This document shows positions 10,047 through 62,254 of a DNA stretch of 64,000 bases, in pieces (position 1 is the first letter of the stretch; each line of letters starts with the position of its first letter). The notes beneath the pieces are model-generated. The model was not told the DNA's origin and did no database searches. It saw only the letters and a program-made list of their open reading frames with translations. The translations under genes were made by a program, and so were the position numbers. This stretch comes from an uncultured Acidobacteriota bacterium. GTDB taxonomy: Bacteria > Acidobacteriota > Thermoanaerobaculia > UBA5066 > DATFVB01. The stretch covers positions 192,001-256,000 of the forward strand of contig CAWEYG010000002.1 in the NCBI GenBank assembly GCA_963813155.1, written 5' to 3'.

Positions 10047-10067
10047 GAAGAGAGCTCCGAGAACGAG

Positions 10068-41064: not shown

Positions 41065-42404
41065 GGGCGTGTCTCCTCCTTCAAAATGCCGTCGAGCGCG
41101 ACAAGGAATCGCGCGAGAGCGGACCGGGGAACGATGTAAGGCGGAAGCAGGCGCAGAACGTTCTTGCGCGCCGTTCCCACCACGAATCCCTTTTCCCGCA
41201 GGGCACCGGCGACGGGACCCGCGTCTCCGTCGAGCTCGACGCCCCACATCAGGCCGGCGCCGCGGACGTCCACGATTCGGGACCGGCGCGACATCAGCCG
41301 CTTCAATTCTTTTTCGAGCCAGGTTCCGAGCTCCCGCACGCGCGAAAGCAGCTTCGCGTCTTCGATCTCGGCGAGGACCTCGAGCCCGAGGCGGCAGGCG
41401 AGCGGATTGCCCCCGAACGTCGTCCCGTGGTGGCCGGGCCGGACGGCGTTCGCCATTCTCGAGCCGGCGACGACGGCGCCGAGCGGCAGGCCGCCGCCGA
41501 GCGCCTTCGCGAGCGTGACCGCGTCGGGAACGACGCCCGCCCGCTCGAAAGCGAAAAGCGCGCCCGTGCGCCCGATGCCGCACTGGATCTCGTCGAAAAT
41601 CAGGAGAGCGCCGCTTCGATCGGCCAGCCGCCGGGCAGCGCGAAGGAACGAAGGCGAGAGGGGAACGATTCCCGCCTCCCCCATCACGGGCTCGAGCAGG
41701 ATCGCCGACGTCCTTTCGGAAACCGCGGCTTCGAGCGCCGCCTCGTCGTCCGGGCGCACGAAGCGGACTCCCGGCAGCAACGGAAGAAACGGCGTTCGGT
41801 ACTCCTCGTGCCCCGTCACCGAGAGCGACCCCATCGTCCGCCCGTGAAAGCTCTCCTCGACCGCGACGATCTCCGCCCGGCCCGGATTCGCGAGCCGGGC
41901 GAACTTCAGGGCCGCTTCGACGGCTTCCGTGCCGCTGTTGCAGAAAAAGACCTTCGAGAGGCCGGAGGCGCGGACGAGCCGTTCGGCGAGAAGCCCCTGG
42001 GCCGGGTGGTAGAACAGATTCGAGACGTGCCACAGGTTCTTCGACTCCTCCCGGAGCGCCCGAACGAGGCGCGGGTGCCGGATCCCGAGCGCGTTGACGG
42101 CGATGCCGCCGAGCAGGTCCCAGTACGGCCGCCCGTCCGCGTCGATCAGCCGAGCGCCCCGCCCGGACCGCGGATGAAAGGGCGTTCGCGCGTAGGTCGA
42201 AAGGACGAAGTTCTTCTCCCTCTGCTCGACGAGAGCAGTCTCGTCCCGGCCGAGCGGGTGGCGGGGGGCGAGACCCCCTTTTGCCGCTCGCGACGCCTTC
42301 GTAGCAAAGTCCTCAGATCGCGGCGAGCGGAAAAGCGGGGCGAGCCCCCCGACAGGACCCGTCCGGCCTCGCTTGGAGTTTCTTCTCAGGCTGCGACAAG
42401 ACAC
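41061..42404 (-). CDS. argD: Acetylornithine aminotransferase carrying an in-frame palindromic element in its N-terminus
   Basis: FFCNSGTEA, SFHGRT, DEIQCGIGRTG, AKALGGG; start is GTG 42404 or TTG 42399. Confidence 0.9.
   Translation of the reverse strand: MSCRSLRRNSKRGRTGPVGGLAPLFRSPRSEDFATKASRAAKGGLAPRHPLGRDETALVEQREKNFVLSTYARTPFHPRSGRGARLIDADGRPYWDLLGGIAVNALGIRHPRLVRALREESKNLWHVSNLFYHPAQGLLAERLVRASGLSKVFFCNSGTEAVEAALKFARLANPGRAEIVAVEESFHGRTMGSLSVTGHEEYRTPFLPLLPGVRFVRPDDEAALEAAVSERTSAILLEPVMGEAGIVPLSPSFLRAARRLADRSGALLIFDEIQCGIGRTGALFAFERAGVVPDAVTLAKALGGGLPLGAVVAGSRMANAVRPGHHGTTFGGNPLACRLGLEVLAEIEDAKLLSRVRELGTWLEKELKRLMSRRSRIVDVRGAGLMWGVELDGDAGPVAGALREKGFVVGTARKNVLRLLPPYIVPRSALARFLVALDGILKEETRP
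42248..42368 (+). repeat. Dispersed palindromic element, family A, copy 1 (inside argD)
   Basis: Long hairpin with TTTTGCCGCTCGC/GCGAGCGGAAAAG arms and a GTAGCAAAGTCCTCA apical sequence shared by 3 copies. Confidence 0.92.
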
Positions 42405-43174
42405 GTCCCTCCTTCTCCGCCCCGGAGCACGTCCGCGTGGCGCCGGGGACCGGCGATCACGACCTCCCGGACGCCCTTCCGAAGCGCCTCCAGGCAGGCC
42501 AGCAGCTTCGGCCGCATTCCTCCCTCGATCGCGGGACCGGAGAGCAGAGACTCCGCGTCCCGAACCGCGAGCCTCGAGAGGGTGCGCCCCGACTCGTCCC
42601 GCACGCCTTCGACGTCGGTGAAGAAGACGAGCCGGCGGGCGGATAGAGCCGCCGCAGCAGCGGCCGCCGCTTCGTCGGCATTCAAATTCAGCAGGCCTCC
42701 GTCGCGGCCGGCCGCGATGGGAGCGAGGACCGGCAGCATGCCGGCCGAGAGGATCGCGTTCAGGAGCCCGGCGCTCGCCCGGGCGCACCCACCGACGAAC
42801 CCGAGGTCCACGCCTCCGGACGGAAGGCGTTTTTCCGCCACGAGCGTCGCTCCGTCCACGCCGCAGATTCCCGCGGCCGGGACCCCGACCTCGCGGAGCT
42901 CCGCGACGATCGCCTTGTTGACGACTCCCGCGAGCACGCCCACGGCCGCTTCGAGCGTCGGCGCATCGGTGATCCGGAGGCCCTCGTGGATTCTTCGCGG
43001 AATCCCGAGCGACGCGAGGTGAGCGTCGAGCCTCTTCCCGCCGCCATGCACGACGACGAGGGATTCGCCGGCATTCCACGCCTCCGCGACGGCCGCGACG
43101 ACGGCGGCCCGCCGCCGCGCGTCCTCCAGGAGGCTTCCCCCGAGCTTGACGACCGTCGGGCGCGGACGTCTCAT
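42386..43174 (-). CDS. argB: Acetylglutamate kinase
   Basis: VVKLGGS, VHGGG, GLRITD, NLNAD, GGMRPKL. Confidence 0.95.
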   Translation of the reverse strand: MRRPRPTVVKLGGSLLEDARRRAAVVAAVAEAWNAGESLVVVHGGGKRLDAHLASLGIPRRIHEGLRITDAPTLEAAVGVLAGVVNKAIVAELREVGVPAAGICGVDGATLVAEKRLPSGGVDLGFVGGCARASAGLLNAILSAGMLPVLAPIAAGRDGGLLNLNADEAAAAAAAALSARRLVFFTDVEGVRDESGRTLSRLAVRDAESLLSGPAIEGGMRPKLLACLEALRKGVREVVIAGPRRHADVLRGGEGGTCLVAA

Positions 43175-44160
43175 TGCAGTCCCTCCCCTTCGGGAAATCC
43201 CGTCATCCGGTTGAAATTCTGAACCGCCTGCGAAGCCGCCCCCTTCAGGAGGTTGTCGAGCACCGAGACGATTACCGCCCTTTTCCCTCCGGAAAGCAGC
43301 GCGTAGCCGATCTCGGCTCTCGGCGTTCCGACGGCGGCTTTGAGATCCGGCAGGTCGCCCTCGGCCCTCACGCGCACGAACGGGCGTCCGCCGTACGCGG
43401 CCTCGAACGCCTGCGCGAGATCGGCCCCGGACGCCGCCCGAGCAAAGCTCACGTGGATCGTCGAGAGGATTCCTCTTTCGACGGGCAGGAGGTGCGGAAC
43501 GAAGACGAGCTCCGCTTCCGGCGCGAGGCCGAGATGGCGCCGCATCTCGGGCACATGGCGATGCGTTCCGACGCCGTAGGCCCGGGAATTTCCGAACAAT
43601 TCGGTGAAAGACCAGGCCGCGTCGCTCTTTCTTCCGGCTCCGGAGATGCCGCTCAGGCTGTCGCAGATGATCGGCGAATCCGGGTCGAGCAGGCCAAGCA
43701 ACGGCTTGAGCGCAAGCAGAATCGAGGTCGGGTAACAACCCGGGTTCGCGACGAGAGTCGCTTCGTCGAGCTCCTCCCCGCACCATTCCGTCAGGCCGTA
43801 GACAGCCTCGCTTCGCTCCCCGAGGCGAAACGCGCCCGAGAGGTCGATGATCCTCGTCTGCGGACGGCCCGCGAGGATCTCTCCGACGAGCCGCGCGGAG
43901 ACCTCTTCCGGCGTCGCGAGAAACACGATATCGGGCTCCCCGTCGAGCAAGCCATCGAGCGAATACGCGACGACGTCGGGCCCTGAAGCGCCGCCGAGCC
44001 CGGGGTGAAGCGACGAAAACGGTCCGGCCGTCGCGCCCGAGCTCGAGTAGATTCCGGCCCACTCGGCTCCGGGATGGCCCGAAAGCCGCCGGCACAATTC
44101 GCCGCCGGCATAGCCGCCGCCCCCCACGACCGATACACGTTTCACGCTCTCTGCAAACAT
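43171..44160 (-). CDS. argC: N-acetyl-gamma-glutamyl-phosphate reductase
   Basis: GGGGYAGGEL, ANPGCYPT, DNLLKGAASQAVQN. Confidence 0.95.
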   Translation of the reverse strand: MFAESVKRVSVVGGGGYAGGELCRRLSGHPGAEWAGIYSSSGATAGPFSSLHPGLGGASGPDVVAYSLDGLLDGEPDIVFLATPEEVSARLVGEILAGRPQTRIIDLSGAFRLGERSEAVYGLTEWCGEELDEATLVANPGCYPTSILLALKPLLGLLDPDSPIICDSLSGISGAGRKSDAAWSFTELFGNSRAYGVGTHRHVPEMRRHLGLAPEAELVFVPHLLPVERGILSTIHVSFARAASGADLAQAFEAAYGGRPFVRVRAEGDLPDLKAAVGTPRAEIGYALLSGGKRAVIVSVLDNLLKGAASQAVQNFNRMTGFPEGEGLQ

Positions 44161-44191
44161 CTGTGCGCTCTTTCCACGAAGAAGGCGCTGT

Positions 44192-44740
44192 TTAAGCGCG
44201 CTTGCGCCGGAGACGGCGCGGGCTGCGGAGGGCCGGAGCGAGGGCGGACTGGAATCTCCGGGCGAGCTTCGCCGCGGAGGAGGGCGACCGCATCGCGAGG
44301 AAGATCGTGTCGTCGCCGGAGATCGTGCCGACGATGTCGGGCAGGCCCGCCTCGTCGATTGCCCGCGCGACCGGGTGGGCATCGGCCGGAGGCGTGCGCA
44401 GGACGAGCAGGGGCCCGGCCGTCTCGGCGGAAAGGACGAATTCCCGGACCGTCCGGTCGAGCCGCTCCATTCGCCTCTGCGGGAGGGACACCGTGTCGGG
44501 CGGAAGGAGAGACGCCGGGGAGCTCGCGGGAACCGCGGGAAGAACGTAACCCTTCGGGCCCTTCGCGACGCCGAGCTCCTTGAGGTCCCGCGAGAGAGTC
44601 GGCTGGGCCGCGGGGAACCCCCGGCTCTGGAGCACGCGGCGCAGGTCGCCCTGCGATCGAACGACGCCCTCGCTCACGATCCGAAGCAGCTCCTCGCGTC
44701 GCCGCATCGCGTCGCCTGCCGAATTCTTATTCATCGCCAT
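44192..44740 (-). CDS. argR: Arginine repressor
   Basis: QPTLSRDLKEL, GTISGDDTIF. Confidence 0.93.
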   Translation of the reverse strand: MAMNKNSAGDAMRRREELLRIVSEGVVRSQGDLRRVLQSRGFPAAQPTLSRDLKELGVAKGPKGYVLPAVPASSPASLLPPDTVSLPQRRMERLDRTVREFVLSAETAGPLLVLRTPPADAHPVARAIDEAGLPDIVGTISGDDTIFLAMRSPSSAAKLARRFQSALAPALRSPRRLRRKRA

Positions 44741-44771
44741 GAATATTTATCCGATATCCCGGGCTTGTCAA
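44718..44771 (-). promoter_or_regulatory. arg operon promoter with two tandem ARG boxes overlapping the argR start
   Basis: TTGACA at 44771-44766; CGGATAAATATTCA and TGAATAAGAATTCG resemble the TGAATAWWWATTCA consensus. Confidence 0.75.
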
Positions 44772-44844
44772 GAAAAAAATGCGCTCTTGCCGGAAAAATT
44801 CGGGGGCTTGACAGGTTCGATATGGTGGGCGCGGAGGTGGCCCC

Positions 44845-45723
44845 ATGGCCCGAAGTTCCCCGGATTCTGCTCGCCCCGTCGCGAAGATCGTCGTGCCGCA
44901 GCCCGTCGTCGAGGGAGCCGGCGTTCACCTGGTGAGGTCGATCGCGACCCGCGAGCTCGACCATCTGGACCCGTTTCTGCTGCTCGACCATTTCGAGTCG
45001 CTGAACCCCGCGGACTACGAGCCGGGATTCCCCTTCCATCCCCACCGCGGGATCGAAACCGTCACGTTCATCCGGAAGGGCGAAGTCCAGCACCACGATT
45101 CGCTCGGACACCGCGGGTCGATCGGCGCCGGCGACATCCAGTGGATGAGCTCCGGGAGCGGGATCCTCCACGAGGAGATGCCGCAGGTGAAGCCGGAGGG
45201 GATCGCTGGCCTCCAGCTCTGGCTCAATCTCCCGGCGCGCGAGAAGATGTCCCGGCCGAAGTACCGGGACCTGCGCTCCGACCTCCTCCCCGAAGTGGAA
45301 ACGGACGAAGGCGCGAAAATCCGCGTGATCGCAGGCGAGGCTCAGGGCGGCCGTTTCACCGGCCCGGTCGAGGGCCTCGCGGTCGACCCGAAGTTCGTGG
45401 AGGTCGTCCTTCCGCCCGGGTCGTCGTTTCGGGAAGCCGTGCCGGCCGGGCACACGGCGTTCGCCTACGTCGACCACGGGGACGTCGTCTTCGGCGGACG
45501 GGACGTTCGCGGGCCGGCGCTCGTGATCTTCGGCGACGGCGATTTCGTTTCCGCCTCCGCGGGACCGGCCGGGGGCCGATTCCTGCTCGCGGCCGCGCAG
45601 CCGCTCCACGAGCCGATCGCGCGCTACGGTCCTTTCGTCATGAACACCCGGGCCGAGATCGAGCAGACCCTGCGCGACCTGCAGACCGGAAACTTCATCC
45701 GGCAGGAGCCGAAAGACGACTGA
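44845..45723 (+). CDS. Pirin family protein
   Basis: DPFLLLDHF, HPHRGIETVT, GILHEE, QLWLNLP, YGPFVMN. Confidence 0.95.
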   Translation: MARSSPDSARPVAKIVVPQPVVEGAGVHLVRSIATRELDHLDPFLLLDHFESLNPADYEPGFPFHPHRGIETVTFIRKGEVQHHDSLGHRGSIGAGDIQWMSSGSGILHEEMPQVKPEGIAGLQLWLNLPAREKMSRPKYRDLRSDLLPEVETDEGAKIRVIAGEAQGGRFTGPVEGLAVDPKFVEVVLPPGSSFREAVPAGHTAFAYVDHGDVVFGGRDVRGPALVIFGDGDFVSASAGPAGGRFLLAAAQPLHEPIARYGPFVMNTRAEIEQTLRDLQTGNFIRQEPKDD

Positions 45724-45732
45724 AGACTTCGC

Positions 45733-46593
45733 TCAGCGGAACAGGGGCTCGCCGGATCCCGGCATCCGGCACGACTCCGGATCGCCGGAAGAAAGCCCCC
45801 TCTGCAGCGACGCGACGCGGTCGGCCGAGGAGCCGTGCGTCCAGGATTCCGGCTGCACGTGCCCCGTCGCCATCTTTTGAAGGGCGTCGTCTCCGACAGC
45901 CGCCGCTGCCTTCATGCCCGCCTCGGCGTCCCCGGGGTCGAGCATTCCCTTGCGGTCGCTCCGGTTGCCCCAGACGCCCGCGAGACAATCGGCCTGCAGC
46001 TCGATTGCGATCGAAGCCTGCCGGCCTTCTCCGGCGCTGCTCATGATCCCGAGCTCGTTCTGGACGTGGTGGCCGACTTCGTGGGCGATCACGTAGGCCC
46101 GGGCGAAATCGCCGGGAGCGCCGAAGCGCTGGGACAACTCCCGAAAGAACGAAAGATCCAGGTAGACCTTGAAGTCCTGCGGGCAGTAGAACGGGCCGAC
46201 GGCACTCGAAGTGATCCCGCAACCCGAGTTGATGCCGCCGTCGAAGAGCACGAGCTTCGGCAGCTCGTAGCGGCGACCATGCTCCTTGAAGATCTCGGTC
46301 CACGTCTGCTCGGTATCGGCGAGCACGATTCGAACGAACTTGAGACCGGCGTCTTCCGCGCCGGAAGTTCCAGTTGGGGCGGGCGTGGTCGACGGCGCCG
46401 TCGCCGCGGGTTGCTCGGAGGAAGACGTGAGGAGCTGAAGGATTTGCAGCGGGCTATGTCCGGTGACGAGCCCGATGATGATCGCGATGACGACCACTCC
46501 GATGCCGCCTCCGGCGATATGCCTCCCGCCGATTCCGCCTCCGCCCCGTTCGTCCTCGACCTGGTCGCTTTCCGGTCGGTCATCCAGACGCAT
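45733..46593 (-). CDS. Neutral zinc metallopeptidase (YpfJ-like)
   Basis: GPFYCP, AHEVGHHVQ, ELQADCLAG, WTHGSS. Confidence 0.92.
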   Translation of the reverse strand: MRLDDRPESDQVEDERGGGGIGGRHIAGGGIGVVVIAIIIGLVTGHSPLQILQLLTSSSEQPAATAPSTTPAPTGTSGAEDAGLKFVRIVLADTEQTWTEIFKEHGRRYELPKLVLFDGGINSGCGITSSAVGPFYCPQDFKVYLDLSFFRELSQRFGAPGDFARAYVIAHEVGHHVQNELGIMSSAGEGRQASIAIELQADCLAGVWGNRSDRKGMLDPGDAEAGMKAAAAVGDDALQKMATGHVQPESWTHGSSADRVASLQRGLSSGDPESCRMPGSGEPLFR

Positions 46594-46655
46594 CTCGGAG
46601 CCTCCTTAGCGGTGCTTCACGCAGCACCATGCCGCGAGAAGCGTATCACCCGGCG

Positions 46656-47399
46656 TCAAACGAGCCTGTCTTCCGTCGCCCAGCGAGCGAACAGGGCCAG
46701 GCCCTTTTCGTCGGCCTCCGTCAATTCGTAGTGGAGGCAGTTGCGAAGGTAGTCCTCCACCATCGCCCGCGAAAGGCGCGTGCCCGAACGATCCCGGGCC
46801 GTTTCGATCTCCGAATCGACCATCGCCTCGAACTCGGCCAGGGATGCGCGGTAGGAATCGAACAGGGCGTTCCGCAGCGCTTCGCTCCAGACTTCCCTTC
46901 GGACGGCCCAGACCGCGAAGACGAACGGGAAACCCGTCAGGCTTCTCCATTCGGACGCGAGGTCCAGCACGACTTGCCCCTGCAGCTCCGCCTTCATCGC
47001 GGGATCTCCGATGATCAACTCGGCGTCGGCGTTCCGCTCACGGCTCTCCGGCTCGATTCCGAACCTCCGCTTGAGCAGGATCCGAACGAGCGCGGCCGAC
47101 GTGCGAGACGCCGGGTCGAACCGGACCGAGCGGATCTTCTCCCGGGAGACGCGCGAGACGAGCAGAACCGACCGAACCTCCGAATCCGCGGCGATACCCA
47201 GCCCCTCCACGCGAACGAGATTCGGAATGCGCGAGAGCTCGATCGAAGGGATCAGGCCGACGTCCGCCCGCCCGTCGCGCAGTTTCTCGGCACACTCCGA
47301 CGGCAGGTCGCGAGCGACCTCGAACCCGGCGGGAGGATTGCGGAGAAGCCCCCAGACGAGCGGCCGGGCATTCAGGAAATCGACGAGGGAGACCCGCAC
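46656..47399 (-). CDS. mqnA: Chorismate dehydratase (futalosine pathway)
   Basis: FLNARPL, VRSVLL, SRTSAAL, IIGDPAM, PFVFAVW. Confidence 0.88.
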   Translation of the reverse strand: MRVSLVDFLNARPLVWGLLRNPPAGFEVARDLPSECAEKLRDGRADVGLIPSIELSRIPNLVRVEGLGIAADSEVRSVLLVSRVSREKIRSVRFDPASRTSAALVRILLKRRFGIEPESRERNADAELIIGDPAMKAELQGQVVLDLASEWRSLTGFPFVFAVWAVRREVWSEALRNALFDSYRASLAEFEAMVDSEIETARDRSGTRLSRAMVEDYLRNCLHYELTEADEKGLALFARWATEDRLV

Positions 47400-47456
47400 G
47401 CCGGCAGTCTATCCGTTCGATGAAGATCGCCGCGAGCATCCCTGTATACTTTTCGA

Positions 47457-49590
47457 ATGTCTCACGCGCGACCCGAAGGCTCCGCGGAGCCCGGCGCTTC
47501 CCCGCTCCGAGGCGACTTCCGAGTCGCTGGACCGGATCGTCCAGCCGACCCTGAACCGGGTCGTGCGCGGCGCCGACATCGTCTCTCTCGAACCGAAGAT
47601 CATGCAGGTGCTCGTTCGGCTGGCCGAAACCCCCGGGGCTGTCGTCACGAAGGAGGAACTCTTCGAGCGAGCCTGGGCGGGCACGTTCGTTTCGGAAGAC
47701 GTCCTGACGCGCGCGATCGGCGAGCTCCGGAAGATCTTCGCCGACGACCCGGCCCGCCCCCGCGTGATCGAGACGATCCGCAAGATCGGCTATCGACTCC
47801 TCGTTTCGCCGGCTCCGCCCGCGACCGACGACGCGGCAGCGGCTGCCGGGCCCGTGGTCCGGCCGGGACTCCGCCGCCGGAGCCGCGTCGCCGCGGTTCT
47901 CGCCGCTGCCGCCGCCTCGATCCTCGCCGCCCTCCTCCTGACGCGTTCCTCCGCGGTTTCGCGCCGTTCCGGCCCCGTGCGAATCGTTCCGGTCACGACG
48001 TTTCCGGGCAACGAGCGGCACCCGGCTCTCTCTCCCGACGGAACCCGAGTCGCCTTCGCCTGGGAAAAGCCCGGAGAAAAGACGAGTCTGTACGTGAAGC
48101 TGCTCGATTCGCCGTCGCCCGTCCGGCTGACCACCTCGCCCGGATCGGACAGTGAGCCCGCCTGGTCTCCGGACGGGCAGAAGATCGCGTTCGTCCGCCG
48201 GACGCGGGAGACGTGCGAGATCCTGAGCGTTCCCTCGATCGGGGGCTCCGCGCAGCGCATGGCCGAATGCGGCAGCCTCGACGCCGGAAAGATCTCCTGG
48301 TCGCCCTCGGGAGCCGAGCTCGCGTTTTCGGTCCCGTCGGCCGGCGGTCCGCTTCGCCTGGAGGCGCTCGATCTCTCGCGCGGCTCGAGGAGAGCGCTCA
48401 CGTCCCCGCCGCCCGGATCCGTCGGAGACGAGGAGGCCTCGTTCTCGCCCGACGGAAAGACGATCTCCTTCCTTCGGTCGCTTTCCGACGGCGTTTCCGA
48501 CATTTACACGGTGCCCGCGGCCGGGGGCTCCGAATCGCGCGTAACGGAGGAGAACCGGAGCATCACCGGCGCCGACTGGTCGCCCGACGGACGAAGCCTG
48601 ATCTTCTCGTCGAGCCGGGCGGGCCTGTTCAGCCTCTGGAAGATCCCGGCGGCCGGAGGCGAGCCGCTCCTCGTCGCCGGGGGCGGGTCGAAGATGAAGC
48701 ACCCTTCCACGGCGCGCCGCGTCAACTCCGTCGCGTACGAGAACTGGCACTACGAGGTCAACCTCTGGCGCGTGCCGCTGTCCGGCGAGACTTCGCGGCC
48801 GGGAACGCGTCTCACGTTCGCCGGGGACGAATGGGAGTTCGACCCCGAATATTCACCCGACGGTTCGCGCATCGCCTACGTCTCGACGAAATCGGGCGCC
48901 GACGAGGTCTGGACGACGGACCGCAACGGCGGTTCTCCGTCGCAGCTCACTTCCTTCGGAGGCCCGCGGCTCGGAATGCCGCGATGGTCGCCGGACGGGA
49001 GAAAGCTCGTCTTCACCGCCCGTCCCCAGGGACAGGCGGACCTCTATTCGATCGACTCCTCCGGCGGCTCCCCGATTCGGCTGACTACCACTCCGGGAGA
49101 CGAAGCGTCGCCGAGCTGGTCGCGAGACGGGCGGTCGATCTATTTCGCGTCGCGGCGGTCCGGCGGCTGGGAAGTGTGGCGGATGCCGTCGGCCGGTGGC
49201 GAGGCGGTCCGCGTGACCCTCCACGGCGGACATACGGCGTACGAATCGGGCGACGGAGCGTGGCTCTACTTCAGCCGCGCCGATTCTCCCGGGATCTGGA
49301 GAATGCCGACCGGAGGAGGGGCCGAAGAGCGGGTTCTCGCCCTGCTCGCCCCGAACTGCGGGGAGGACTGGCGAGTCACGGCCCGGGGCATCTACTTTCG
49401 CGTCGACCGCGGCGAGGCGCCGCCGCTCGTACAGATGTGGGCCTTCGGCGCGAGCGGGCCTGTCACGGTCGCGTCCCTCGAGGAGCAGGCCTGGGACGGG
49501 TTCACGGTTTCCCCGGACGGCTCCTCGATCGTCTACGGCCGCGCCGATCGGCGCGACTGCGACATTCGCATGGTCGAAAACGCGTTCTAG
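47457..49590 (+). CDS. Membrane-anchored regulator: OmpR/CadC-type winged helix, TM segment and TolB-like PD40 beta-propellers; apparent +1 frameshift near 47529
   Basis: LEPKIMQVL...IETIRKIGYRL, one TM segment, many WSPDG repeats; N-terminus 'MSHA...GDFRV' is in a different frame. Confidence 0.85.
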
Positions 49591-50585
49591 CCGGGTCCCC
49601 GGTCCCCTGGACCCCGATCACCTCTCGGTCCGGTCTTGTTCCGTCCGAATGTCCCCGTTTCCAGCGCCGGCGCGGCACCGACCGTGAACGAAGTGCACGA
49701 CCGCTCGTGGATCGCCGCCGTGCGATCCCGAAGGAAGCCGGCGCAACGCCCGCGGCGGACCGCCTGGATCTCCGCCGCGACCGAGAGCGCGATCTCCTCG
49801 GGCGTCTCGGACTCGATATCGAGGCCGGCGGGCGCGTAGATCCGGGCAGATCCCAGCGGATCCGGAGTGTCCCGGGTGTCCTCGAGAATCCGGGCGGCGC
49901 GCTGCCGGGAGCCGAGGACGCCGATGTAAAAAGCGCCAGTCGTTCGGAGTGCCCGAAGCATTTCGACGTCGTCCAGGTAATGATGGGTCGCGACGAGGGC
50001 GGCGGTCGACGGCGTGACGGCCGAGTCGATTTCGTCCGGCAGAAGGATCGGTCCCTCGAGGACGGCCGACCATCGCCGCCTCGCCTCCGGCGTGACGCGC
50101 GGGGCAACGACCTCGACGCGCCACTCGAGAATCTTCGCGATCCGAACCAGCGGCAACAGGTCTTCGCCGGTCCCCGCCAGCAGGAGAACGGCGGGCGGGC
50201 CGCCCTCGGCAGCCCGTTCCAGCCCGTCGAGCTCGGCCGCGTCGAGCTCCGTCAGCAGCACCCCGATCCGGCCGCCGCAGCCGAGCCCGGAGCCGAAAAC
50301 GATGTCGTCGGGACCCGAGAGGTCGTATTCGACCCTGAGAGGGCCCTTGCGGGCCAGGATCTCCGGAACACGCCGACGCAGCTCCAGTTCGAAACAGCCT
50401 CCGCTGATCGATCCCGCCGTCGAACCGTCCTCGCACAGGATCATGCGCGCCCCGGGCCTTCGGTAATGAGACCCCTCGACCGAGACGAGGTGCGCGAGCA
50501 CTCCCCTTCCTCCGCGAGCGAGGAGATCGCGGCCGAACGCGGCGAGGGAAGCGAGCGAGCTCCCGCTCGGCTCCGGGAGCTTCAT
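49587..50585 (-). CDS. XdhC/CoxI-family molybdoenzyme maturation protein
   Basis: [46 protein letters not shown]. Confidence 0.88.
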
Positions 50586-52768
50586 GCTCGTTCCCGCAGG
50601 TCCTCCGCGCGAATCGGAAGCTCCCGAACTCTCACCCCGGTCGCGTCGAACACGGCGTTCGCGACGGCGGCATAGACGGGCGGCACCGGCTGCTCGCCCA
50701 CTCCGAGGGGCCGGACGTCGGACGGCACGATGTGCGTCTCGATGGCCGGGCAATCGTGCATCCGAACGACCGGAAAATCGCGATAGGTGCTTTGCTGAAC
50801 TCGCCCTTTCTCGAACGTGATCCTTCCGTGCAGTGTGGCGGAGAGGCCCCAGAGCACGGCGCTCTCGACCTGGCCCTCGACGCCGAGGGGGTTGACGGCG
50901 CGCCCGCAATCGATCGCGCAGACGACGCGATGCACGCGCACGTCGCCCTCCTTCCCCACGGAGACTTCGGCGACCTGCGCGACCATGGTCTGGCGGTGAT
51001 ACGCGTTGCAGGCGAACCCCCGCCCCCACCGGCGGCCGTTGCGCTCGCGCGGCAGCGGCTGTTTCCATCCCGACTTCTCCGCCGCGACCCGGACGACGTT
51101 CCGCAGGCGATCGCCGTTGTCGAGCGTGATCGTGCGAAGCTTCACCGTCCCGGGCGACGGGATGAGGTCCATCCGGAGGTCGATCGGATCGCGGCCCGCC
51201 GCGCGCGCGATTTCGTCCAGAAAGGACTCGCGGCCGAAAACCGTCGACGGGTAGCCGACCGACCTCCAGGCTCCCGTGTTCACCGGAGCCTCGGCGGGAG
51301 CGAAGTCCACGCGCAGCGCGGGAATCGAATAGGGCAGGTCGAACCCGCCCCACGGGTTCTCTTCGTACATCCCGGGGTTCTCCCGATCGAACTTCTCGAA
51401 CATCGTCAGGTGAAAATCGGAGGACCGGTGAATCCAGGCCGAGGGCCTTCCCGCGGCGTCGAACCCCGCGGAAAAGACGTGAAGCGCGGCCGGCTGAAAA
51501 AAGTCGTGGTGCATGTCGTCGGGACGCGTCCACGCGACCTGAACGGGGTACGAGACCTTCCTCGCGAGCTCGACCGCTTCGATCACATAGTCGTACGTCA
51601 GCCGCCTTCCGAACCCGCCGCCGAGAAGCAGGACGTTCAGCCGGACCTTCTCGAGCGGTATCCCGAGCAGCGCCGCGACGTCCTTCTGCGCCTCGTTGGG
51701 GGCCTGCGTGCCGACCCAGATCTCGCATTCGCCGCCGCGCACGACCGCCGCGCAATTCATCGGCTCGAGCGTCGCGTGCGCCTGAAAGGGGTAACGATAG
51801 GTCGCCTCGATCCGGCGCGGAGCCGCGGCGAGCGCGGCGTCCGCATCCCCTTCCCGGCGCGTCGTTCGAGCCCATCCCTTCAAAGCCTCCTCGAGGCGCG
51901 CCCAGTTCCCGGCCGTCGAGTCGGCGGCATGAGGCCCTTCGTCCCACTCGACCGCGAGCGCGTCGCGGCCCCGGAAGGCGGTCCAGGTGTCGGCTGCCGT
52001 GACGGCGATCCCGCTCGGGATCTCCACGACGTCGCGCACCCCGGCGATGGCCTTCGCGGCGGCCGCGTTCCACCGGATCGGTCGGGCCCCGTAAACGGGA
52101 GGGCGCGAGACAGCCGCCCGGAGCATTCCCGGGACCCGGACGTCGAGCCCGTAGACGGCGCTTCCGCCCACGATCGCCGGCCCGTCGAAACGGCGAACTC
52201 GCGTTCCGACCAGGGTGTAGTCGCGCGGATTCTTCAGCACGGGCTCCGCGGGCACCGGGAGAGCGGCCGCCGCGGCGACGAGCTCTCCAAACGGAAGGGA
52301 CCGCCCCGCCGGGCCGATCACGCGGCCGCTTTCGGTCCGGCACGAGTCGCGCGGCACGTTCCACCGCGCCGCCGCCGCGGCGATCAGCATTTCCCGCGCG
52401 GCGGCCCCCGCTTTGCGAAGGGGAATCCAACCGTCGACGACGCTGCTGCTCCCGCTCGTGCGCATGTCGGGAAACTCGGCGCCCGGCCTGGCATGCCGGA
52501 CCTCGATAGAGCTCCAATCCGCCCCCAGCTCCTCGGCGAGCAGCATGGGAAGGGCCGTGCGGACGCCCTGGCCCATCTCCGACTGAGCGGCCGTCAGCAC
52601 CACACGGCCGGACGCGTCGATCGACACCCAGGGGTTCGGCGAAAAGGCGGCCCGAGACGCCGTCGTCTTGACCGGCTCGCCCCCCGCGTTCCAGGGAAAC
52701 TGGAGAACGAGCGCGGCGGCTCCGCCGATGGCGCCCGCCCGCAGAAATTCGCGGCGGGTGGCGCTCAT
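50582..52768 (-). CDS. Xanthine dehydrogenase-family molybdopterin subunit (IorB-like) with Tat signal
   Basis: [38 protein letters not shown]. Confidence 0.9.
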
Positions 52769-53237
52769 CGCTTCTCCCCCGCCAGCCGCGCCGCCCGATG
52801 GATGGCCTTTCTCATTCTCGTGTAGGTGCCGCAGCGGCAAACGAGATCGGACATCGCGGCGTCGATCTCGGCGTCGCTCGGGATCCGGCTTTTCGTTCAG
52901 CAGCGCGCTCGCGGCCATGATCATGCCCGGCTGGCAGTAGCCGCACTGAGCGACGTCCTCCTCGATCCACGCCCGCTGGCAGGGGTGGCCTCTTCCGGCG
53001 GAAAGGCCTTCGATCGTCGTGAACGACCGGCCGCTGGCTTCGCGAACGGGGATCTGGCATGAGCGGACGGCGCGCGCCCTTTTCGTGGACGGTGCAGGCG
53101 CCGCAGACCCCGACGCCGCAGCCGAACTTCGTGCCGGTCAGCCCGAGGTGATCGCGCAGAACCCAGAGGACGGGAGTCTCGGGGTCGCCTTCGAAGGCAC
53201 GGTGAGCTCCGTTGACGGTGAGCTGAAATCTTGCCAT
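52765..53237 (-). CDS. (2Fe-2S)-binding small subunit (IorA/CoxS-like); two apparent +1 frameshifts near 53075 and 52879
   Basis: [24 protein letters not shown] and CRCGTY occur in three successive frames; restored stop overlaps the large-subunit ATG. Confidence 0.85.
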
Positions 53238-53296
53238 GCCCCTGAATACGGCAGGAGCGGCAGAAAAGTCCCGAGGGAACGCCGAGGTTTACCCGA

Positions 53297-53359
53297 GGGT
53301 TGACCCCTCCCCGGCTTCGCCACCCCTCCCCGCAAGCGGGGAGGGGAAGGGGGTGGGGT

Positions 53360-53365
<6 letters not shown>
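53297..53365. repeat. GC-rich branched palindrome (REP-like; possible terminator) at the rho 3' end
   Basis: CCCCTCCCCGC-AA-GCGGGGAGGGG hairpin plus GGC-TTC-GCC, enclosed by GGGTTGACCCC/GGGGTCTACCC. Confidence 0.65.
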
Positions 53366-54714
<1,349 letters not shown>

Positions 54715-54743
<29 letters not shown>

Positions 54744-55299
54744 TGGGAAGCTCCTTTTGAATCCTTTTTCTCAAAGACTCGATTCCTTCGCCCGTTCTAG
54801 AGGAAACAAACAGAACGTCGCCGAATTCCTTCTCGAGTCTGGCTTTGGCCTGGGATCGTTCCGACTGGTTTAACCGATCCGCTTTGGTCGCAATACATGC
54901 CGACCGAAGGGCCAGATCTCTGAGATAGTCGCGGAAATCGAGGTCGAAGTCGGAAGTCGGTATTCTAGGGTCGATCAGCTGGATCGTCAAGAGGGGTCTT
55001 TTCCCTTCGAAAAGCGAGGCCACGAGCTCTTTCCAGGACGCCCGGTCGTCGCGCGAACCGGCCGCAAAACCGAAGCCCGGCAGGTCCGCCGCGATCCACC
55101 CCGCCCTCGAGTCGAAGAGATAGATTGCCCGCGTTCTGCCGGGGGTTTTCGAGATCCGGGCGACGGGGAGCTTCAGCAACGCATTCAAAAGACTCGATTT
55201 GCCGACGTTGCTTCGTCCTCCGAACGCCACCAGATTGGCGATTTTCGGCGGAAAATCGCGCGGACCGTGGACCGCGGCCAGAAGCCGCTCCTTGTTCAT
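54715..55299 (-). CDS. engB: Ribosome biogenesis GTP-binding protein YihA/YsxC
   Basis: [26 protein letters not shown]. Confidence 0.9.
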
Positions 55300-55329
55300 T
55301 CATCTCCCCCGAAATGTGAGTCGGGACGA

Positions 55330-57714
55330 TCAGTGCATCAGGCCGGGGTTCGAAAGGTCGCCTTCGACCTCGACGGGCTTGGGCGCCGCCACGGAGGCGT
55401 GGTCCATCGCGACTTTGATCACCTCGTCCATGTTGTCGACGAGCTGAAACTCCATCGCTTCGCGGACTTCCTTCGGGATTTCGTCCAGGTCCTTTTCGTT
55501 CTCGACCGGCAGCGCGATCACGCGAATCCCCGCGCGGTACGCGGCGAGGACCTTGTCCTTGATGCCTCCGACCGGAAGCACCTTGCCCCGCAGCGTGATC
55601 TCGCCCGTCATCGCGACGTCGCGGAGGATCGGAATGCGCGTGACGGCGGAAAAGAGCGAAGTTGCGAGGGCGATCCCCGCGGACGGCCCGTCCTTCGGGA
55701 TCGCGCCTTCGGGAACGTGGATGTGAATGTCTTTCTTCTCGTGAAAATCGGGATCGGCGTCGTAGATCTCCGCCCGGCTTCGAACGTACGAGACGGCCGC
55801 CCGGGCTGACTCCTGCATCACGTCGCCGAGCGATCCGGTCAGGGTCAGCGTGCCCTTCCCCTTGAGGAGGCTCGTTTCGATCGTCAGGATCTCTCCGCCG
55901 ACTTCGGTCCAGGCGAGACCGGTGGCCATGCCCACTTCGGACGTCTCGCCCTTCTTCCGATTGCGGAACTTCGCCTTCCCGAGGTAGTCCTTCAGCTCGT
56001 CGGGCCGGATTTCCAGCGGAGGCGTCGCCTGGCCGGCCACGACCCTTCGCGCGACCTTCCGGCAGATGCTCGCGATTTCGCGCTCCAGGTTTCGGACGCC
56101 CGCCTCGCGCGTGTGGTCCGAAATGACCGCGAGGATCGTCTCGTCGGAGAAGACGATCGCCCCCGCCTCGAGACCGTGCTCCTCGATCTGTTTCGGAACG
56201 AGGAACCGCTGGGCGATCTGGGTCTTCTCCTGGTGCGTGTAGCCGGAGAGGCTCAGGAGCTCCATCCGGTCCTTGAGGGCCGGTGGGATCGGGTGCGCGA
56301 CGTTGGCCGTCGCGATGAACATCACTTTCGACAGGTCGTACTCCACGTCGAGGTAGTGGTCGACGAACGCGTGGTTCTGCTCCGGATCGAGAACTTCCAG
56401 CAGCGCCGAGGAGGGGTCGCCTCGAAAATCCATCGACATCTTGTCGACTTCGTCGAGGAGAAAGACCGGGTTGACGACGCCGGCCTTCTTCATCATCTGG
56501 ATGATCTGGCCGGGAAACGCGCCGATGTAGGTCCGCCGGTGTCCTCGGATCTCCGCCTCGTCGCGAACGCCTCCCAGCGACAGCCGCACGAACGGGCGGT
56601 TCAGCGACTTCGCGATCGATCGGGCAAGCGAGGTCTTGCCCACTCCGGGCGGGCCGACGAAGCAGATGATCGAGCCGCGCGCCTTCTTGGAGAGCTGCCG
56701 CACGGCGAGAAATTCGAGGATCCTCTCCTTGATTTTCTCGAGCCCGTAGTGGTCCTCGTTCAGGACCTTCTCGGCGAGACCGATGTCCTTGCACTCCTTC
56801 GCGTATTTCTTCCAGGGAACCGCGAGCAGCCAGTCGATGTAGTTGCGGGACACGGTCGCTTCGGCCGAAACGCCGGGCATCGCCTCGAGGCGCTTGAGCT
56901 CCGCCGTCGCCTTTTCAGCGACATCCTTCGGCATTTCGGCTTCCTCGATCTTCTTCTTGAGGTCCGCCGTTTCGTCCGAGCGGTCGTCGTTGCGCCCGAG
57001 CTCCTGATGGATCGCCTTGATCTTCTCGTTCAGGTAGTACTCGCGCTGCGCCTTCTCCATCTGCTTCTTGACCTTGTTGTTGATGCGGCGATCGAGGTTG
57101 ATCTTCTCGATCTCCCCTTCGAGCAGGTCGGCGATCTTCGCGAGGCGTTCCGACGGCTTCGAGGCCTCCAGCAGCGCCTGCTTCTCGGGGGTCGCGACGT
57201 TGAGGTGCGAAGCGAGGGTATCGGCGAATCGGTCCGGGTCGTCGGTCTTGAGCGTCGCCGCGAGACCGTCGAACGCAAGATGGTGCGAGAGACGGGCGTA
57301 CTGCTCGAACGTCGTCAGGACCTTCGCCATGAACTCGCGCAGGTCGTCCACCGACGCGCCGCGGACTTCGACGGGGACCACTTCGACGAGAAACGAGTCC
57401 CGCTCGAACAGGAACGACCGGATGGTGCCCCGGCGAACGCCCTCCACCATCACCTTGATGTGGCCGTTCGGGAGCTTTTGCGACTGCAGGATCTGGGCGA
57501 CGACGCCGGTCTCGAAAATATCCGACGCCGCCGGCTCGTCGATCTTCGGGTTCTTTTGCGCGGAGAGGAAGATGCGCTTCTCCGGGGTCGCGAGCGCTTT
57601 CTCCAGCGCGCGGATCGACGATTCCCGGCCGACGACGAACGGCGACATCTGGTGCGGAAAGACGACCATGTCCCGCAGCGGAACGAGCGGAAGCGTCTCG
57701 AGGGCTTCGGCCAT
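55330..57714 (-). CDS. lon: ATP-dependent Lon protease
   Basis: [29 protein letters not shown]. Confidence 0.97.
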
Positions 57715-57717
57715 CGG

Positions 57718-58962
<1,245 letters not shown>

Positions 58963-59125
58963 TCAACCTCCGGAATGACTTCCTGACACCGAATTTATCC
59001 TACCATAACCGGGACATCCGATCACGTTAACGTCTGACTCGACAGGGAAAATTCCGCACCTCCCCGTCCTTTCATCGCCGCCAGCTGCCGCGCGGCGCAC
59101 GGCTCGAACTGGTTGGGCAGCGACA

Positions 59126-59245
59126 GCCGAGCGGGTGGCGCGGGAGGAGACTCCCTTTTGCCGCTCGCGACGCGGGTGTAGCAAAGTCCTCAGGCTCGCG
59201 GCGAGCGGAAAAGAGGAGCGAGTCCCGCGACAGGACCCGCTCGGC
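59126..59245 (+). repeat. Dispersed palindromic element, family A, copy 2 (clpP-clpX intergenic)
   Basis: Perfect 11-bp terminal inverted repeat GCCGAGCGGGT/ACCCGCTCGGC; same arms and apical sequence as copy 1. Confidence 0.92.
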
Positions 59246-59269
59246 CGCCGGGGCTAGCTATCGTCCGCG

Positions 59270-59953
59270 CTAGCCTGCTGCCTTCAGGGTCGTGTCGTCG
59301 CGGCTCGTGAACACGTGATCGATCAGCCCGTACTTCTTCGCCTCGTCCGCCTCGAGGATGAAGTCGCGGTCCGTGTCCCGCTCGATTTTCTCGAAGGACT
59401 GCCCCGCGTGCTTGACGTAAATGTCGGTGATCTTCTTTTTCAGGCGAACGAGATCCTTCGCGTGGATCTCGATGTCCGACGTCTGGCCCTGGAGCCCCGA
59501 CGTCCACGGCTGGTGGAGAAGAAACCGCGCGTTCGGAAGCGCGTGCCGCTTGCCCGGCGCGCCGGCCGCCATCAGCACGGACGCCATCGACGCGGCCTGC
59601 CCCATGCAGATCGTCTGGACGTCGGGCTTGACGTACTGCATGGTGTCGTAGATCGCGAGACCGGCGGTGACGACCCCGCCGGGAGAGTTGATGTACAGCA
59701 TGATGTCTTTTTCCGGGTTCTCCGCCTCGAGAAAAAGCATCTGGGCAATGATCAGGCTGGCGACGTTGTCGTCGATGGGCGTCCCCAGAATGATCACGTT
59801 GTCCTTGAGCAGCCGGGAGTAAATGTCGTAGGCCCTCTCGCCTCGACTCGTTTGTTCGATCACCATCGGGACCAGCACGGAGCCACCTCCTCCTTCTTCT
59901 TCTTCCTCGCTTCGAGCGCTTCGCGCGTCGTTCATGCCTTCTTCAATGCTCAC
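59270..59953 (-). CDS. clpP: Clp protease proteolytic subunit
   Basis: [25 protein letters not shown]; start uncertain. Confidence 0.96.
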
Positions 59954-59963
59954 GGGAGTGATT

Positions 59964-61310
59964 TTATTTCGTTTGGCCCGCTTCCACGGGCTGGACGGAT
60001 GCGTGGTCGATCAGCCACGACATCGCTTTCTGCAGGCGAATCTCCTGGCGAACCGACCCGAGACGGCCGCCCTTCTCGAGGCGTTCCTTCAGCTCGCCGA
60101 AATCGACGCCGCGCCGGACGGCGCTGTTTCGGACTTCCGCGTCGACCTCCGTATCGGTCACGGAGACGTCCTCGCGCCGCGCGATCTCGTCGAGCAGGAG
60201 ATACTCCTGGACTCTCTTCTCGGCCCCGGGACGGGCGTCGGCCGCCAGCTTGTCCCAGTCCGCCTCTTTCGGATCGACGCCCCGGGTCTGAAGGTAGCCG
60301 GCATAGTCTTCGAGAGCCGATTCCACCTCGGCGTCGACGAGCACTTCGGGCGGCGAGATCCGGACTCCCGACAGCAGGTTGTCGAGGATCTCGCGGTGAA
60401 ATTTCCGCCTCCGGCCCGCTTCCTTCTCCGCGCGAATCCCCGCCGCGATCTTCTCTTTCAATTCGGCGGCCGATTCCGCGTTCCCGACGTGGCGCGCGAA
60501 TTCCTCGTCGAGCTCGGGCACGCGCTTTTCCTTCAGGGCGACGAGCGTCACGTCGTAATCGAACGTCTTTCCCGCGAACTTCTCGTTCGGGAAATCCGGG
60601 GCAAACGTCTTGCGAAAGCGCCGTGTTTCTCCGGGCAGTGCGCCGAGGAGCGCTTCGTTCACCTCGGGCATGGAGTCCGGGTGCCCCACTTCGAGCGTGA
60701 CCTTCTCGTCCTTTTCCCACTCGCCGGCCTTTTCGTCCGCGATCGCCTCACCGGCGCCCGTGTAGAGCACCGGGCTCTGGAGCTCCACGAGCCGGCTCGC
60801 GACGTCGGAGATCGCAAAGTCCCCCTTCTCCGCCGCGCGTCCCTCGATCGGGAGAAACTCCGCGTGCGACTCGAGGATCCGGGCGAGCGTCTGCTCGATC
60901 TCGGGCTCGTCCGGCTCGACCGACACGTCGTGGATCGGAACGCCCGTGTAGTCGCCGGGCTCGATCGGAGGCCGCACGTCCACGTTCGCGCGGAACGCCA
61001 GCGGCTTCCCCTCTTCGAACCGGAGGTCCTCGATGCGCGGCCTCCCGAGCGGCTGCACGCCCTTCTCCGCGATCGCGCTGCCCAGGGCGTCCGGGATGAG
61101 GTGTTCGAGCAGCTCGTCGCGAATCTCGGCGGCGAATCGCTGCGCCGCGACGGATTCGGGGATCTTCCCCTTCCGAAACCCCGGGAGGTTCGCCCGGCGG
61201 GCGAAATCGCGCGTGATGCCCTTCTTCGCCCGCTCGACTTCCTCGGACGGAATCTCGATCTCGAACACCCGGCGCGAGTCGGAAACCTCGGAATAGTTGA
61301 GAATCGCCAT
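59964..61310 (-). CDS. tig: Trigger factor
   Basis: LPGFRKGK ribosome-binding loop, FKBP domain, position upstream of clpP. Confidence 0.93.
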
Positions 61311-61330
61311 CCAGGCCATCATAACAAATG

Positions 61331-61454
61331 GACCGTGCGGGTCCTGTCATGGGACTCGCCCCACTTTTCCGCTCGCTGCGAGTGTGAGGACTTTGCTACG
61401 ACTCCGCGCCGCGAGCGGCAAAAGGGGGTCTCCTCCCATGCCACCCGCCCGGCC
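61331..61454 (-). repeat. Dispersed palindromic element, family A, copy 3 (inverted, upstream of tig)
   Basis: Reverse complement matches copies 1 and 2, including GTAGCAAAGTCCTCA and ACAGGACCCG. Confidence 0.92.
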
Positions 61455-61477
61455 CCCGCATCGTGCGCTGCGCCCTG

Positions 61478-61604
61478 CGAGATCCGCAGCGGGCCAATGA
61501 CCGGCGCAGGCTGGTCTCTGAGACCCCGAGGGAAAGCGAACTGCGGCCGAGGGTCGAGAGACTTGCCGAGACCGGCGCTGGGGCTAGACCCGAGCGGATC
61601 GAGC
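61478..61604 (+). repeat. Dispersed palindromic element, family B, copy 2
   Basis: 35-nt core identical to 2447-2566; different but still pairing outer stem GATCCGC/GCGGATC. Confidence 0.85.
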
Positions 61605-61629
61605 GAAGCCCATGCGGTCCGGGGACGGT

Positions 61630-62254
61630 CTAGCTGAGAACCACGATGACGACGCGGCGGTTCTTCGAGCGCCCGTCTTTGGACTTGTTCGAATCGACCG
61701 GCTGGGTTTCGCCGTACGAGATCGTGCTCAACCGGTTGAGCGCGACGCCCTTTTGATTCAGGTAGAGGCGCACCGCGTCCGCCCGTTCCTGGCCGAGCCG
61801 CATGTTGTACTCGGAGGAACCGGTGGAATCCGTGTGTCCCTGAATCTCGATGAAGACGTTCTTGTTGTCCGTCTTCAGTCTTTCGACGAATTCGTCCAGC
61901 TGCTCCTCGGCCTCCTTCGAAAGATCGTGGCCGTTCACGGGAAAGTGGGCTTTGTCGTCGGAGAGCACGACGGAGTAGTTGAATTTTCCCTGCGCCAGCT
62001 TGCCGGCTTCCGTCGCCCGCGCAATCGCGTCCCGCGTCGACTTGTCGAGCGCCGTGATGCGCTGCTCGTGATCGTTGACGCGCGTCTGGGTCTGCTCGAC
62101 CTGGGATTCGACGTCGGTGATGCGCTTCTCGGATTTCACGCTGCTCTTCTCGACCTCGGCCGAAACGTATTGCTTGGTGGCGCACCCCGGGAGAATCGCC
62201 AGCATCGCCGCGAGCCCCAGGAAGAGTCCCCCGGATTGCCGTCTTCGATGTCAT
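61630..62254 (-). CDS. OmpA/Pal-like peptidoglycan-binding lipoprotein, copy 1; apparent +1 frameshift near 62227
   Basis: TAAGGAG RBS at ATG 62254, LPGC lipobox, coiled coil, GHTD..G..YNMRLGQERA, NRRV. Confidence 0.88.

Follow-up and report, generated by a model that had tools for sequence, protein, structure and literature searches.

Small palindromic repeats are common in Proteobacteria. Palindromic intergenic repeats of the REP (repetitive extragenic palindromic), REPIN (REP doublets forming hairpins) and BIME (bacterial interspersed mosaic element) type are already well known, including REPs nested in outer palindromes, for which the relevant passages of Di Nocera et al. (2013, PMC3733652) report that element-free target palindromes were not found. 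In Acidobacteria and Planctomycetes, the sections of Quentin et al. (2018, PMC6006769) on class 3 TnpA-Y1 describe ‘REPtron-like’ systems with high-copy atypical structures, of which there are ~600 in one acidobacterium. Here we describe family A, a hairpin-forming repeat found in three copies in a window of 64,000 nucleotides (G000:C2:192001-256000, the whole stretch of DNA analysed) from G000, a 3.81-Mb metagenome-assembled genome (MAG) of 23 contigs and 66% G+C. Family A is high-copy, genus-restricted, strictly intergenic and free of target-site duplications, and its copies are centred within mutually pairing sequences; some of these are unique flanks, and others belong to a second repeated palindrome that another module also uses. 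We consider it best explained, with a probability of roughly 0.55, as a non-autonomous palindromic intergenic repeat of REP/REPIN/BIME type, belonging to a genus of Thermoanaerobaculia-like Acidobacteriota and still being turned over.

The window contains three family A copies only, namely copy 1 at 42248..42368 on the plus strand (core 42254-42362, with a 6-bp outer stem on each side), copy 2 at 59126..59245 on the plus strand (core 59131-59240) and copy 3 at 61331..61454 on the minus strand (core 61337-61448). These positions and a single-hairpin fold had been proposed in a preliminary description of the sequence, and alignment and folding bore out both: each copy folded as a single long, imperfect hairpin (-73 to -79 kcal/mol, z = -4.2 to -5.5), none of 200 shuffles folded equally well, and the reverse strands folded about as well. 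One stem reads CGGGGGG/CCCCCCG, CGCGGGA/TCCCGCG and CATGGGA/TCCCATG in copies 1 to 3, and the next reads CCCC/GGGG, CTCC/GGAG and CCCC/GGGG; the stem sequences and compensatory changes quoted in that description were exact as written. Its ‘invariant’ segments, the apical GTAGCAAAGTCCTCA, the arms TTTTGCCGCTCGC/GCGAGCGGAAAAG and ACAGGACCCG, are indeed identical among the three window copies, but family-wide they are not absolute, being 90–100% conserved over 99 aligned copies from three genomes. In copy 2, GTAGCAAAGTCCTCA occupies 59178..59192 (+), and GACAGG, the 3' side of a conserved asymmetric basal internal loop that faces a 5' GG, occupies 59229..59234 (+).

The conserved core of ~110 nt begins with GCGGGTGG and ends with ACAGGACCCGC. 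Its basal stem is followed, moving towards the tip, by the asymmetric internal loop, in which GACAGG faces GG; the variable stem P2; an internal loop of GAGA/CGAG; a long inner stem in which CYCCC-TTTT-GCCGCTCGC pairs with GCGAGCGG-AAAAG-GGRG; and the apical region with GTAGCAAAGTCCTCA. Conservation is highest in the internal parts and variation greatest at the ends. Over the 99 copies, standard pairs were present in 85.2% of 4665 cells, compared with 41–48.5% when partners were slid by 1–3 columns. Both sides had changed in 26 of 48 pairs (17.6 ± 1.3 after shuffling) and the covariation score was 0.179 (0.111 for shuffles); none of 500 shuffles reached the pairing, double-change or covariation values. 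The compensatory stem changes seen in the window extend to the family as a whole. Several P2 positions carry CG, GC, AU, UA and GU pairs, and one pair of the P3 stem is divided between CG (52 copies) and UA (44); inherited subfamily structure accounts for part of this, so these counts do not represent independent events. When folded alone, the two arms gave local hairpins barely above shuffles (z = -0.8 to -2.05).

Whenever a transition creates G·T on one strand, the opposite strand acquires A·C. For P2 the counts were 89 of G·T or T·G and 3 of A·C or C·A, becoming 34 and 3 once a single dominant column was left out; over all 41 core pairs the ratio was weaker (214:116), with three columns dominating. 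From the P2 excess it follows that one particular strand, the one carrying GTAGCAAAGTCCTCA, has been kept foldable.

Using a profile built from the three window copies (nhmmer), 57 family A copies were recovered in G000, and a covariance model built from the 99 copies of three genomes found 63, in keeping with the expectation in the preliminary description that many more would be present genome-wide. With the covariance model, the same-genus genomes G001 and G002 contained 47 and 75 copies, four sister-genus genomes contained 4, 0, 2 and 1 diverged copies, G008 from another family gave 6 weak matches and five further relatives gave none; G002 and G008 are unpublished genomes, on which the G002 count and the G008 matches with their UPF0102 neighbour rest, as do the clpP–clpX absence and the inverted copy 1 reported below for G002. 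When 60 more genomes of the class were scanned, representing 44 genera, E ≤ 1e-4 was reached by G003 and G008 alone. Scanning public genomes, one for each prokaryote species, with a sequence pattern gave 57 loci. True copies numbered 53 and were confined to two MAGs, ‘uncultured Acidobacteriota’ (23) and ‘Thermoanaerobaculia’ (30); the other four loci were rejected as chance matches inside coding sequence of Alphaproteobacteria and one Acidobacteriaceae MAG. No family A match was found in plasmids or phages by blastn, or in viral contigs by pattern scan.

The diverged copies in other genera keep GGCGGGUGGCGCGG...CCGCGACAGGACCCGC, with GGCGGGUGGC...GACAGGACCCGC the best-kept part in distant copies, and one in the sister-genus genome G003 also keeps the apical UGUAGCAAAGUCCUCA. 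Their inner stem has GCCGCCCG/CGGGCGG in place of GCCGCUCG/CGAGCGG, a compensatory replacement. These copies too are intergenic, lying in G003 and G005 between genes for a short-chain dehydrogenase and a class II ribonucleotide reductase, and a match in G008 lies upstream of a UPF0102 gene. Rfam gave no match at gathering threshold over the whole window, and with E up to 10 over positions 58900-61700 the copies matched only MIR1151 (20.2 bits, gathering threshold 90) and Methylosinus-1 (18.3, threshold 145.1). A literature search found no description of small palindromic repeats in Thermoanaerobaculia, and the apical 12-mer was encountered only in unrelated human-primer papers. The family had been called unassignable in the preliminary description; the missing Rfam match agrees with this, but the novelty was overstated, as repeats of this kind are well known.

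Within G000 the spread of copies is uneven, with 2 on C3 (1.05 Mb), 21 on C1 (0.92 Mb) and 16 on C2 (0.88 Mb). Tetranucleotide usage of C3 is the same as that of C1 and C2, and the module B and frame motifs described below are also rarer on C3, less markedly. In the fragmented G002 assembly, copies are often found at contig ends (for example C291:9-122, C204:107-240 and C447:1-79), as expected if the repeat breaks short-read assemblies.

As judged with a gene finder based on G+C at third codon positions (GC3), all 57 G000 copies are intergenic. The neighbouring genes are tandem for 38 copies, half of them sense and half antisense (19 each), convergent for 13 and divergent for 6, spacers of the last two types being about equally numerous in this genome. 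Relative to local GC skew the copies were divided 28 to 22, showing no replication-strand bias. In the window, copy 1 lies between two minus-strand open reading frames (ORFs) and is antisense to both, copy 2 lies in a clpP–clpX spacer and is antisense to both genes, and copy 3 ends 15 nt upstream of the first ATG of a trigger-factor-like 452-amino acid ORF (59964..61322), to which it is sense; the names clpP-like, clpX-like and trigger-factor-like (tig) were read from ORF order and size, with no library scan. A consensus scan of the window copies turned up nothing resembling a promoter. Downstream of the clpP-like gene, copy 2 read on its reverse strand forms a local hairpin of 12 bp with CTCTTTTCC after it, while across the family the orientation is evenly split.

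Direct repeats of 3–6 nt at offsets of 0–15, examined around 51 copies, were not more frequent than in shuffled partner flanks, and no target-site duplication could be recognized. The sequence just outside the core varies from copy to copy and yet pairs across the element, as in GAGACTG...CAGTCTC and TTCTCGC...ACGAGAA. Over the first 8 flank positions there were on average 4.73 pairings versus 3.71 ± 0.16 for shuffled partners (reached in none of 500), and in gap-free register this pairing reaches ~5–6 bp past GCGGGT. Many copies have TCGCTCGG in the upstream flank and CCGAGCGA in the downstream flank. Genes between closely spaced copies were ordinary or, by eye, toxin–antitoxin-like, with no transposase among them; small gene pairs of the latter appearance lie between close family A copies at G000:C2:867102-867758 and C8:10663-13880.

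A second repeated palindrome, GGCCAACGCGCCGGCGCA ... TTGCCGAGCCGGCGCTGGGG, encloses 13 copies, among them members of both apical subfamilies, and in all 13 the orientation relative to this outer palindrome is identical. Nineteen outer frames hold instead a ~50-nt module B, also in fixed orientation, and two hold a third insert; the frame scan of G000 revealed no empty frame, and its 43 further loose motif matches looked like chance, mostly in coding sequence. Module B, with the core CGGCCGCAGTTCGCTTTCCCTCGG, has ~40 matches in G000, lies within the same outer palindrome as family A, GGCCAACGCGCCGGCGCA...GCCGGCGCTGGGG, and stands in its place at the same loci in sister strains. In the window, module B with half of the shared outer palindrome lies at 61490..61560 on the minus strand, ~35 nt upstream of copy 3, and contains GACCCTCGGCCGCAGTTCGCTTTCCCTCGGGGTCTCAGAGACCAGCC. 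A third palindrome family, CCCTCTCC-N4-6-GGAGAGGG, often accompanied by GGGTGAGGG, is exemplified at G000:C2:277267-277406.

At the same intergenic sites, sister strains and species carry different repeats, or A in the opposite orientation. The small G000 contigs C7–C23 are 85–99% identical to stretches of the large contigs C1–C6 and represent strain variants binned together. Such contigs inflate repeat counts but provide natural strain comparisons. Family A at C6:226898-227008 faces module B at C4:8042-8094 in the same frame, with the flanking alignment stopping precisely at the core ends; A at C6:155897-156007 faces module B on C10; A at C17:13189-13298, a copy common to G001 (C14:213905-214027), faces a whole B element on C2; and between C23 and C6, a 330-nt repeat cluster takes the place of 210 nt of unrelated spacer. 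Between species, G001:C14 is collinear with G000:C2:95,935-665,544 (570 kb, ~88–93% identity), and on this stretch G001 has 10 full copies and one degenerate copy and G000 C2 has 9, with four sites common to both and one more shared via the C17 strain only. Where G001 alone carries A, G000 has a B element (C2:258730-259023), the CCCTCTCC...GGAGAGGG palindrome (C2:277267-277406) or unrelated spacer. Empty orthologous sites, which the preliminary description had advised looking for, amounted to a single truly empty one, C2:596416-596420 of G000; it faces a ~400-nt composite of frame, A and further sequence in G001 rather than A alone, and the other sites lacking A mostly carry another repeat.

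At the nine sites common to G000 and another genome, orientation was the same in four and inverted in five (loci L001 and L007, which repeat the flips of two G001 sites, were not counted twice). The inversion of copy 1 in G001 and G002 is clean, with orthologous flanks up to GGGT...ACCC and the whole asymmetric interior flipped. At the other four, the immediate flanks or the form of the element (framed versus unframed) differ too, so these look like replacement and not in-place inversion; at the copy 3 site, for example, G001 and locus L001 have an inverted copy in a different outer frame. The copy 2 site is occupied in G001, and the element is absent from the clpP–clpX spacer of G002, which is not alignable. 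Beside the copy 2 orthologue, at G001:C14:397532-397632 (locus L132), a second degenerate inverted copy was noted. This turnover of sites and orientations, like the outer palindrome around A and the partner-specific pairing of its flanks, goes beyond the preliminary description.

Copies did not cluster by genome, 17 of 50 G000 copies being nearest to a copy from the ‘uncultured Acidobacteriota’ MAG, and only one of the 4851 pairs among 99 cores was identical. Orthologous cores are 88–98% identical; for the three pairs with measured flanks, the cores were 88–95% and the flanks or surrounding region 85–93% identical. At the paired positions of eight orthologous pairs there were 8 double changes, 11 single changes that kept pairing and 7 single changes that broke it. 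The double changes exceed what chance placement of ~10 differences would give, although gene conversion or hairpin-templated repair could produce the same outcome.

Of the described systems, REPINs with RAYT transposases (Bertels and Rainey 2011, PMC3116915) are alike in being hairpin-forming and intergenic with tens of copies, in their confinement to a lineage with apparently long vertical inheritance, in compensatory stem changes and in the lack of target-site duplication. Copy numbers of REP–RAYT repeats run from tens to hundreds, and family A, with its tens of copies, its intergenic location, its restriction to a lineage and its long persistence, agrees with them. It differs in that none of the three family A genomes has a detectable RAYT/Y1 gene; in its ends, GCGGGT...ACCCGC, with GTAG in the apical loop only, whereas the REP unit is 20–40 nt with a GTAG/CGTC foot; in its arms, which are not clearly palindromes themselves; and in its conserved parts, which are the asymmetric basal loop and the 15-nt apical sequence. 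With BIMEs, in the sections of PMC3733652 that deal with them, family A has in common palindromic units that are clustered with other repeated motifs in variable intergenic arrangements, elements placed inside longer palindromes, and the failure to find an element-free target palindrome or frame. Its unit is nevertheless longer, ~110 nt against 20–40 nt for a REP, and its frame can carry another module instead, unrelated to A and likewise fixed in orientation (13 frames with A, 19 with B). Miniature inverted-repeat transposable elements (MITEs) such as Correia/NEMIS, ERIC and RUP, as summarized in part of PMC3733652, are also small, non-coding, foldable, multi-copy and near genes, but family A has neither a target-site duplication nor a parent insertion sequence (IS) whose ends match, the one IS detected in several copies in G000 being unrelated at its ends; moreover, the conserved parts of family A are internal while its ends are the most variable. 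Lacking RAYT and the foot tag of REPINs and the duplication and parent IS of MITEs, family A works like these elements while being a member of neither group. An origin from IS200/IS605 (PATE) or as a TnpB-associated RNA was rejected: such elements have distinct left-end and right-end hairpins where family A has a single one, and neither PF01797 (3 genomes searched) nor PF07282 (7 searched) gave a match.

The class 3 Y1 proteins of Acidobacteria (in the part of PMC6006769 describing them) remain the nearest lead for a mobiliser. The phylum and the high copy number of atypical structures agree, and CnGA-type motifs (CCGA/CTGA in CCGAGCGA and CTGAGCGA) recur in family A flanks and frames; the difference is that a Y1 protein of any class was undetected by PF01797 or by the motif signatures of Table 1 of that paper. 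PF01797 is carried by three of the four sister-genus genomes and by G008, G010 and G012. At the 6 Y1 loci of these relatives the covariance model detected no A-like hairpin, and GACAGGACCC was also not found there. By our reading, the G003 Y1 protein has HuH/Y motifs and a C-terminal part resembling the helix-turn-helix-bearing subclass 2.1, as that subclass is outlined in PMC6006769.

Taken together, these features suggest how a repeat of REP/REPIN/BIME type might behave in this genus. Family A would have spread through intergenic DNA before the species of the genus split, new copies arising via a single-stranded hairpin intermediate of the GTAGCAAAGTCCTCA-carrying strand that would be placed at, or copied into, the tips of existing palindromes, whether gene-end hairpins or other repeats. 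The one-strand G·T bias, the lack of duplications and the position at the centre of pairing sequences would all fit a single-stranded hairpin aimed at palindrome tips. Module swaps and flips would then come from recombination or template switching between inverted arms and shared frames; the mobilising enzyme would not be a detectable Y1/HUH transposase; and any effect on the host, through transcript ends or stability, would probably be secondary.

A number of results weigh against this interpretation. A mobilising enzyme was not found among the families tested. PF01797 (Y1_Tnp) was present in 0 of the 3 genus genomes (completeness 90.8, 78 and 99%), compared with 6 of 10 other relatives; the HUH...Y motif signatures listed in Table 1 of PMC6006769 matched none of the six-frame G000 ORFs; TnpB (PF07282) was found in none of 7 genomes; and RVT_1 (reverse transcriptase) and Transposase_31 were each not found in the one genome searched. 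The single IS110 gene of G000, on C3, is broken in G001, was not found in G002 and adjoins no copy. Four DUF559 genes (G000:C2:263580-263900, C2:45255-45575, C6:50037-50348 and C6:33121-33363) are flanked by CCCTCTCC...GGAGAGGG palindromes, and none of the four has A within 900 nt. The preliminary description saw no cognate transposase in the window, which holds and extends to all of G000 for the families tested, and the search it proposed, for a RAYT, IS200 or DUF559 gene flanked by copies, found no such gene linked to family A. A clean filled-versus-empty site for A alone was not found among the orthologous loci compared, and the one identical pair of cores leaves no recent burst visible. 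Selection is not the only source of compensatory changes in a DNA palindrome, which hairpin-templated repair or gene conversion can generate as well. Lastly, the strain-variant contigs make ~5–7 of the 57 G000 copies allelic duplicates, and the GC3-based gene finder behind the intergenic assignments is crude (2383 genes, 68.7% of G000 called coding).

The same evidence was weighed for other explanations. If family A were a structured RNA family, acting in cis as stabiliser, processing site or terminator or in trans as a small RNA, its loops would be putative protein- or RNA-binding sites, and stem covariation with conserved unpaired segments, the one-strand G·T excess, the basal motif and apical loop kept in other genera with compensatory P3/P4 changes, the location of copy 3 only 15 nt before a start codon and a terminator-like reverse-strand 12-bp local hairpin followed by CUCUUUUCC would all be accounted for. 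Against this, copies are sense and antisense to genes equally often, lack promoter-like sites, have unrelated flanks, are inverted at 5 of 9 shared sites between species and have their sites freely taken by other repeats, while orthologous cores evolve about as fast as their surroundings, no Rfam family matches and the local arm hairpins barely exceed shuffles. Random gene orientation, flips and loss of sites to other repeats make an RNA role in cis or trans less likely, and we regard it as improbable. Independence of orientation from genes and replication would instead suit a site that a host protein binds as duplex or cruciform DNA and that is retained because it serves chromosome organisation or supercoiling, as would intergenic spread, persistence since before speciation and conserved asymmetric motifs; REP/BIME elements provide a precedent, binding gyrase, IHF and DNA polymerase I according to works cited in the reference list of PMC6006769. 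A site read in duplex form, however, would give no reason for G·T to exceed A·C on one strand, and the very uneven spread (2 copies on the 1.05-Mb C3, 16–21 on contigs of 0.9 Mb), the free loss or replacement of sites between sister species and the 0–4 copies of the sister genus argue in the same direction, so that this explanation appears quite improbable.

It may also be that no dedicated machinery is involved, and that host recombination, gene conversion via common arms and template switching at hairpins suffice, with covariation and complementary flanks as by-products of hairpin-templated repair. Module swaps exactly between shared frames, a single clean inversion in place whose limits are the inverted arms of the element itself, the 8 double stem changes in orthologous pairs and the lack of a transposase among the families tested are all consistent with such an account, but ~40 of the 57 copies have unique flanks with no homology to drive conversion, recombination alone fails to explain arrival at dozens of unrelated intergenic sites, and the one-strand G·T bias is left unexplained; we therefore think it rather improbable as a whole. 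Finally, A and its sister modules might be moved without HUH/Y1 chemistry, by an undescribed host or element protein that places a strand-specific hairpin at palindrome tips and would recognize the asymmetric basal loop (GG/GACAGG) and the apical GTAGCAAAGUCCUCA. Such placement would account for flanks that pair only with their own partner, for cargo that can be exchanged inside a common frame and for orientation being random at conserved sites, yet we hold this proposal, including its recognition elements, to be unlikely. A REP/REPIN/BIME-type repeat that is still being turned over remains our preferred interpretation.

Two other repeats of G000 were recorded alongside family A. A 1.07-kb IS is present in at least 6 copies at 99% identity (C1:492206-493297, C1:495747-496836, C2:660579-661709, C3:888700-889811, C4:79135-80222 and C5:214429-215504), with ends unrelated to family A. 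On our reading of its translation it looks IS30-like; in the copy translated (C1:492206-493297) an in-frame stop interrupts the ORF. Immediately beyond the right end of the IS there is a small hairpin, TCCCCGCGTTCGCGGGGATGAC, with others like it at several left flanks. Window positions 10015-13083 (G000:C2:202015-205083) form a ~3-kb segment with paralogues 80–93% identical at C1:802226, C1:910265, C2:342819, C2:722751, C5:272974 and on C20. The segment probably represents a gene family of several copies and is not rRNA, because Rfam found nothing in the window.

For these Acidobacteriota, family A provides a well-populated example (47–75 copies per genome) of a small palindromic repeat with clear structural signatures, and searching all three genomes for a RAYT-type enzyme produced none. 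In practical terms, such repeats break short-read assemblies of these MAGs and mark strain-level variation. The family is also a test case for how repeats of this kind persist or move without known machinery, and for the way they remodel intergenic sequence, as in the neighbourhood of tig, clpP and clpX.

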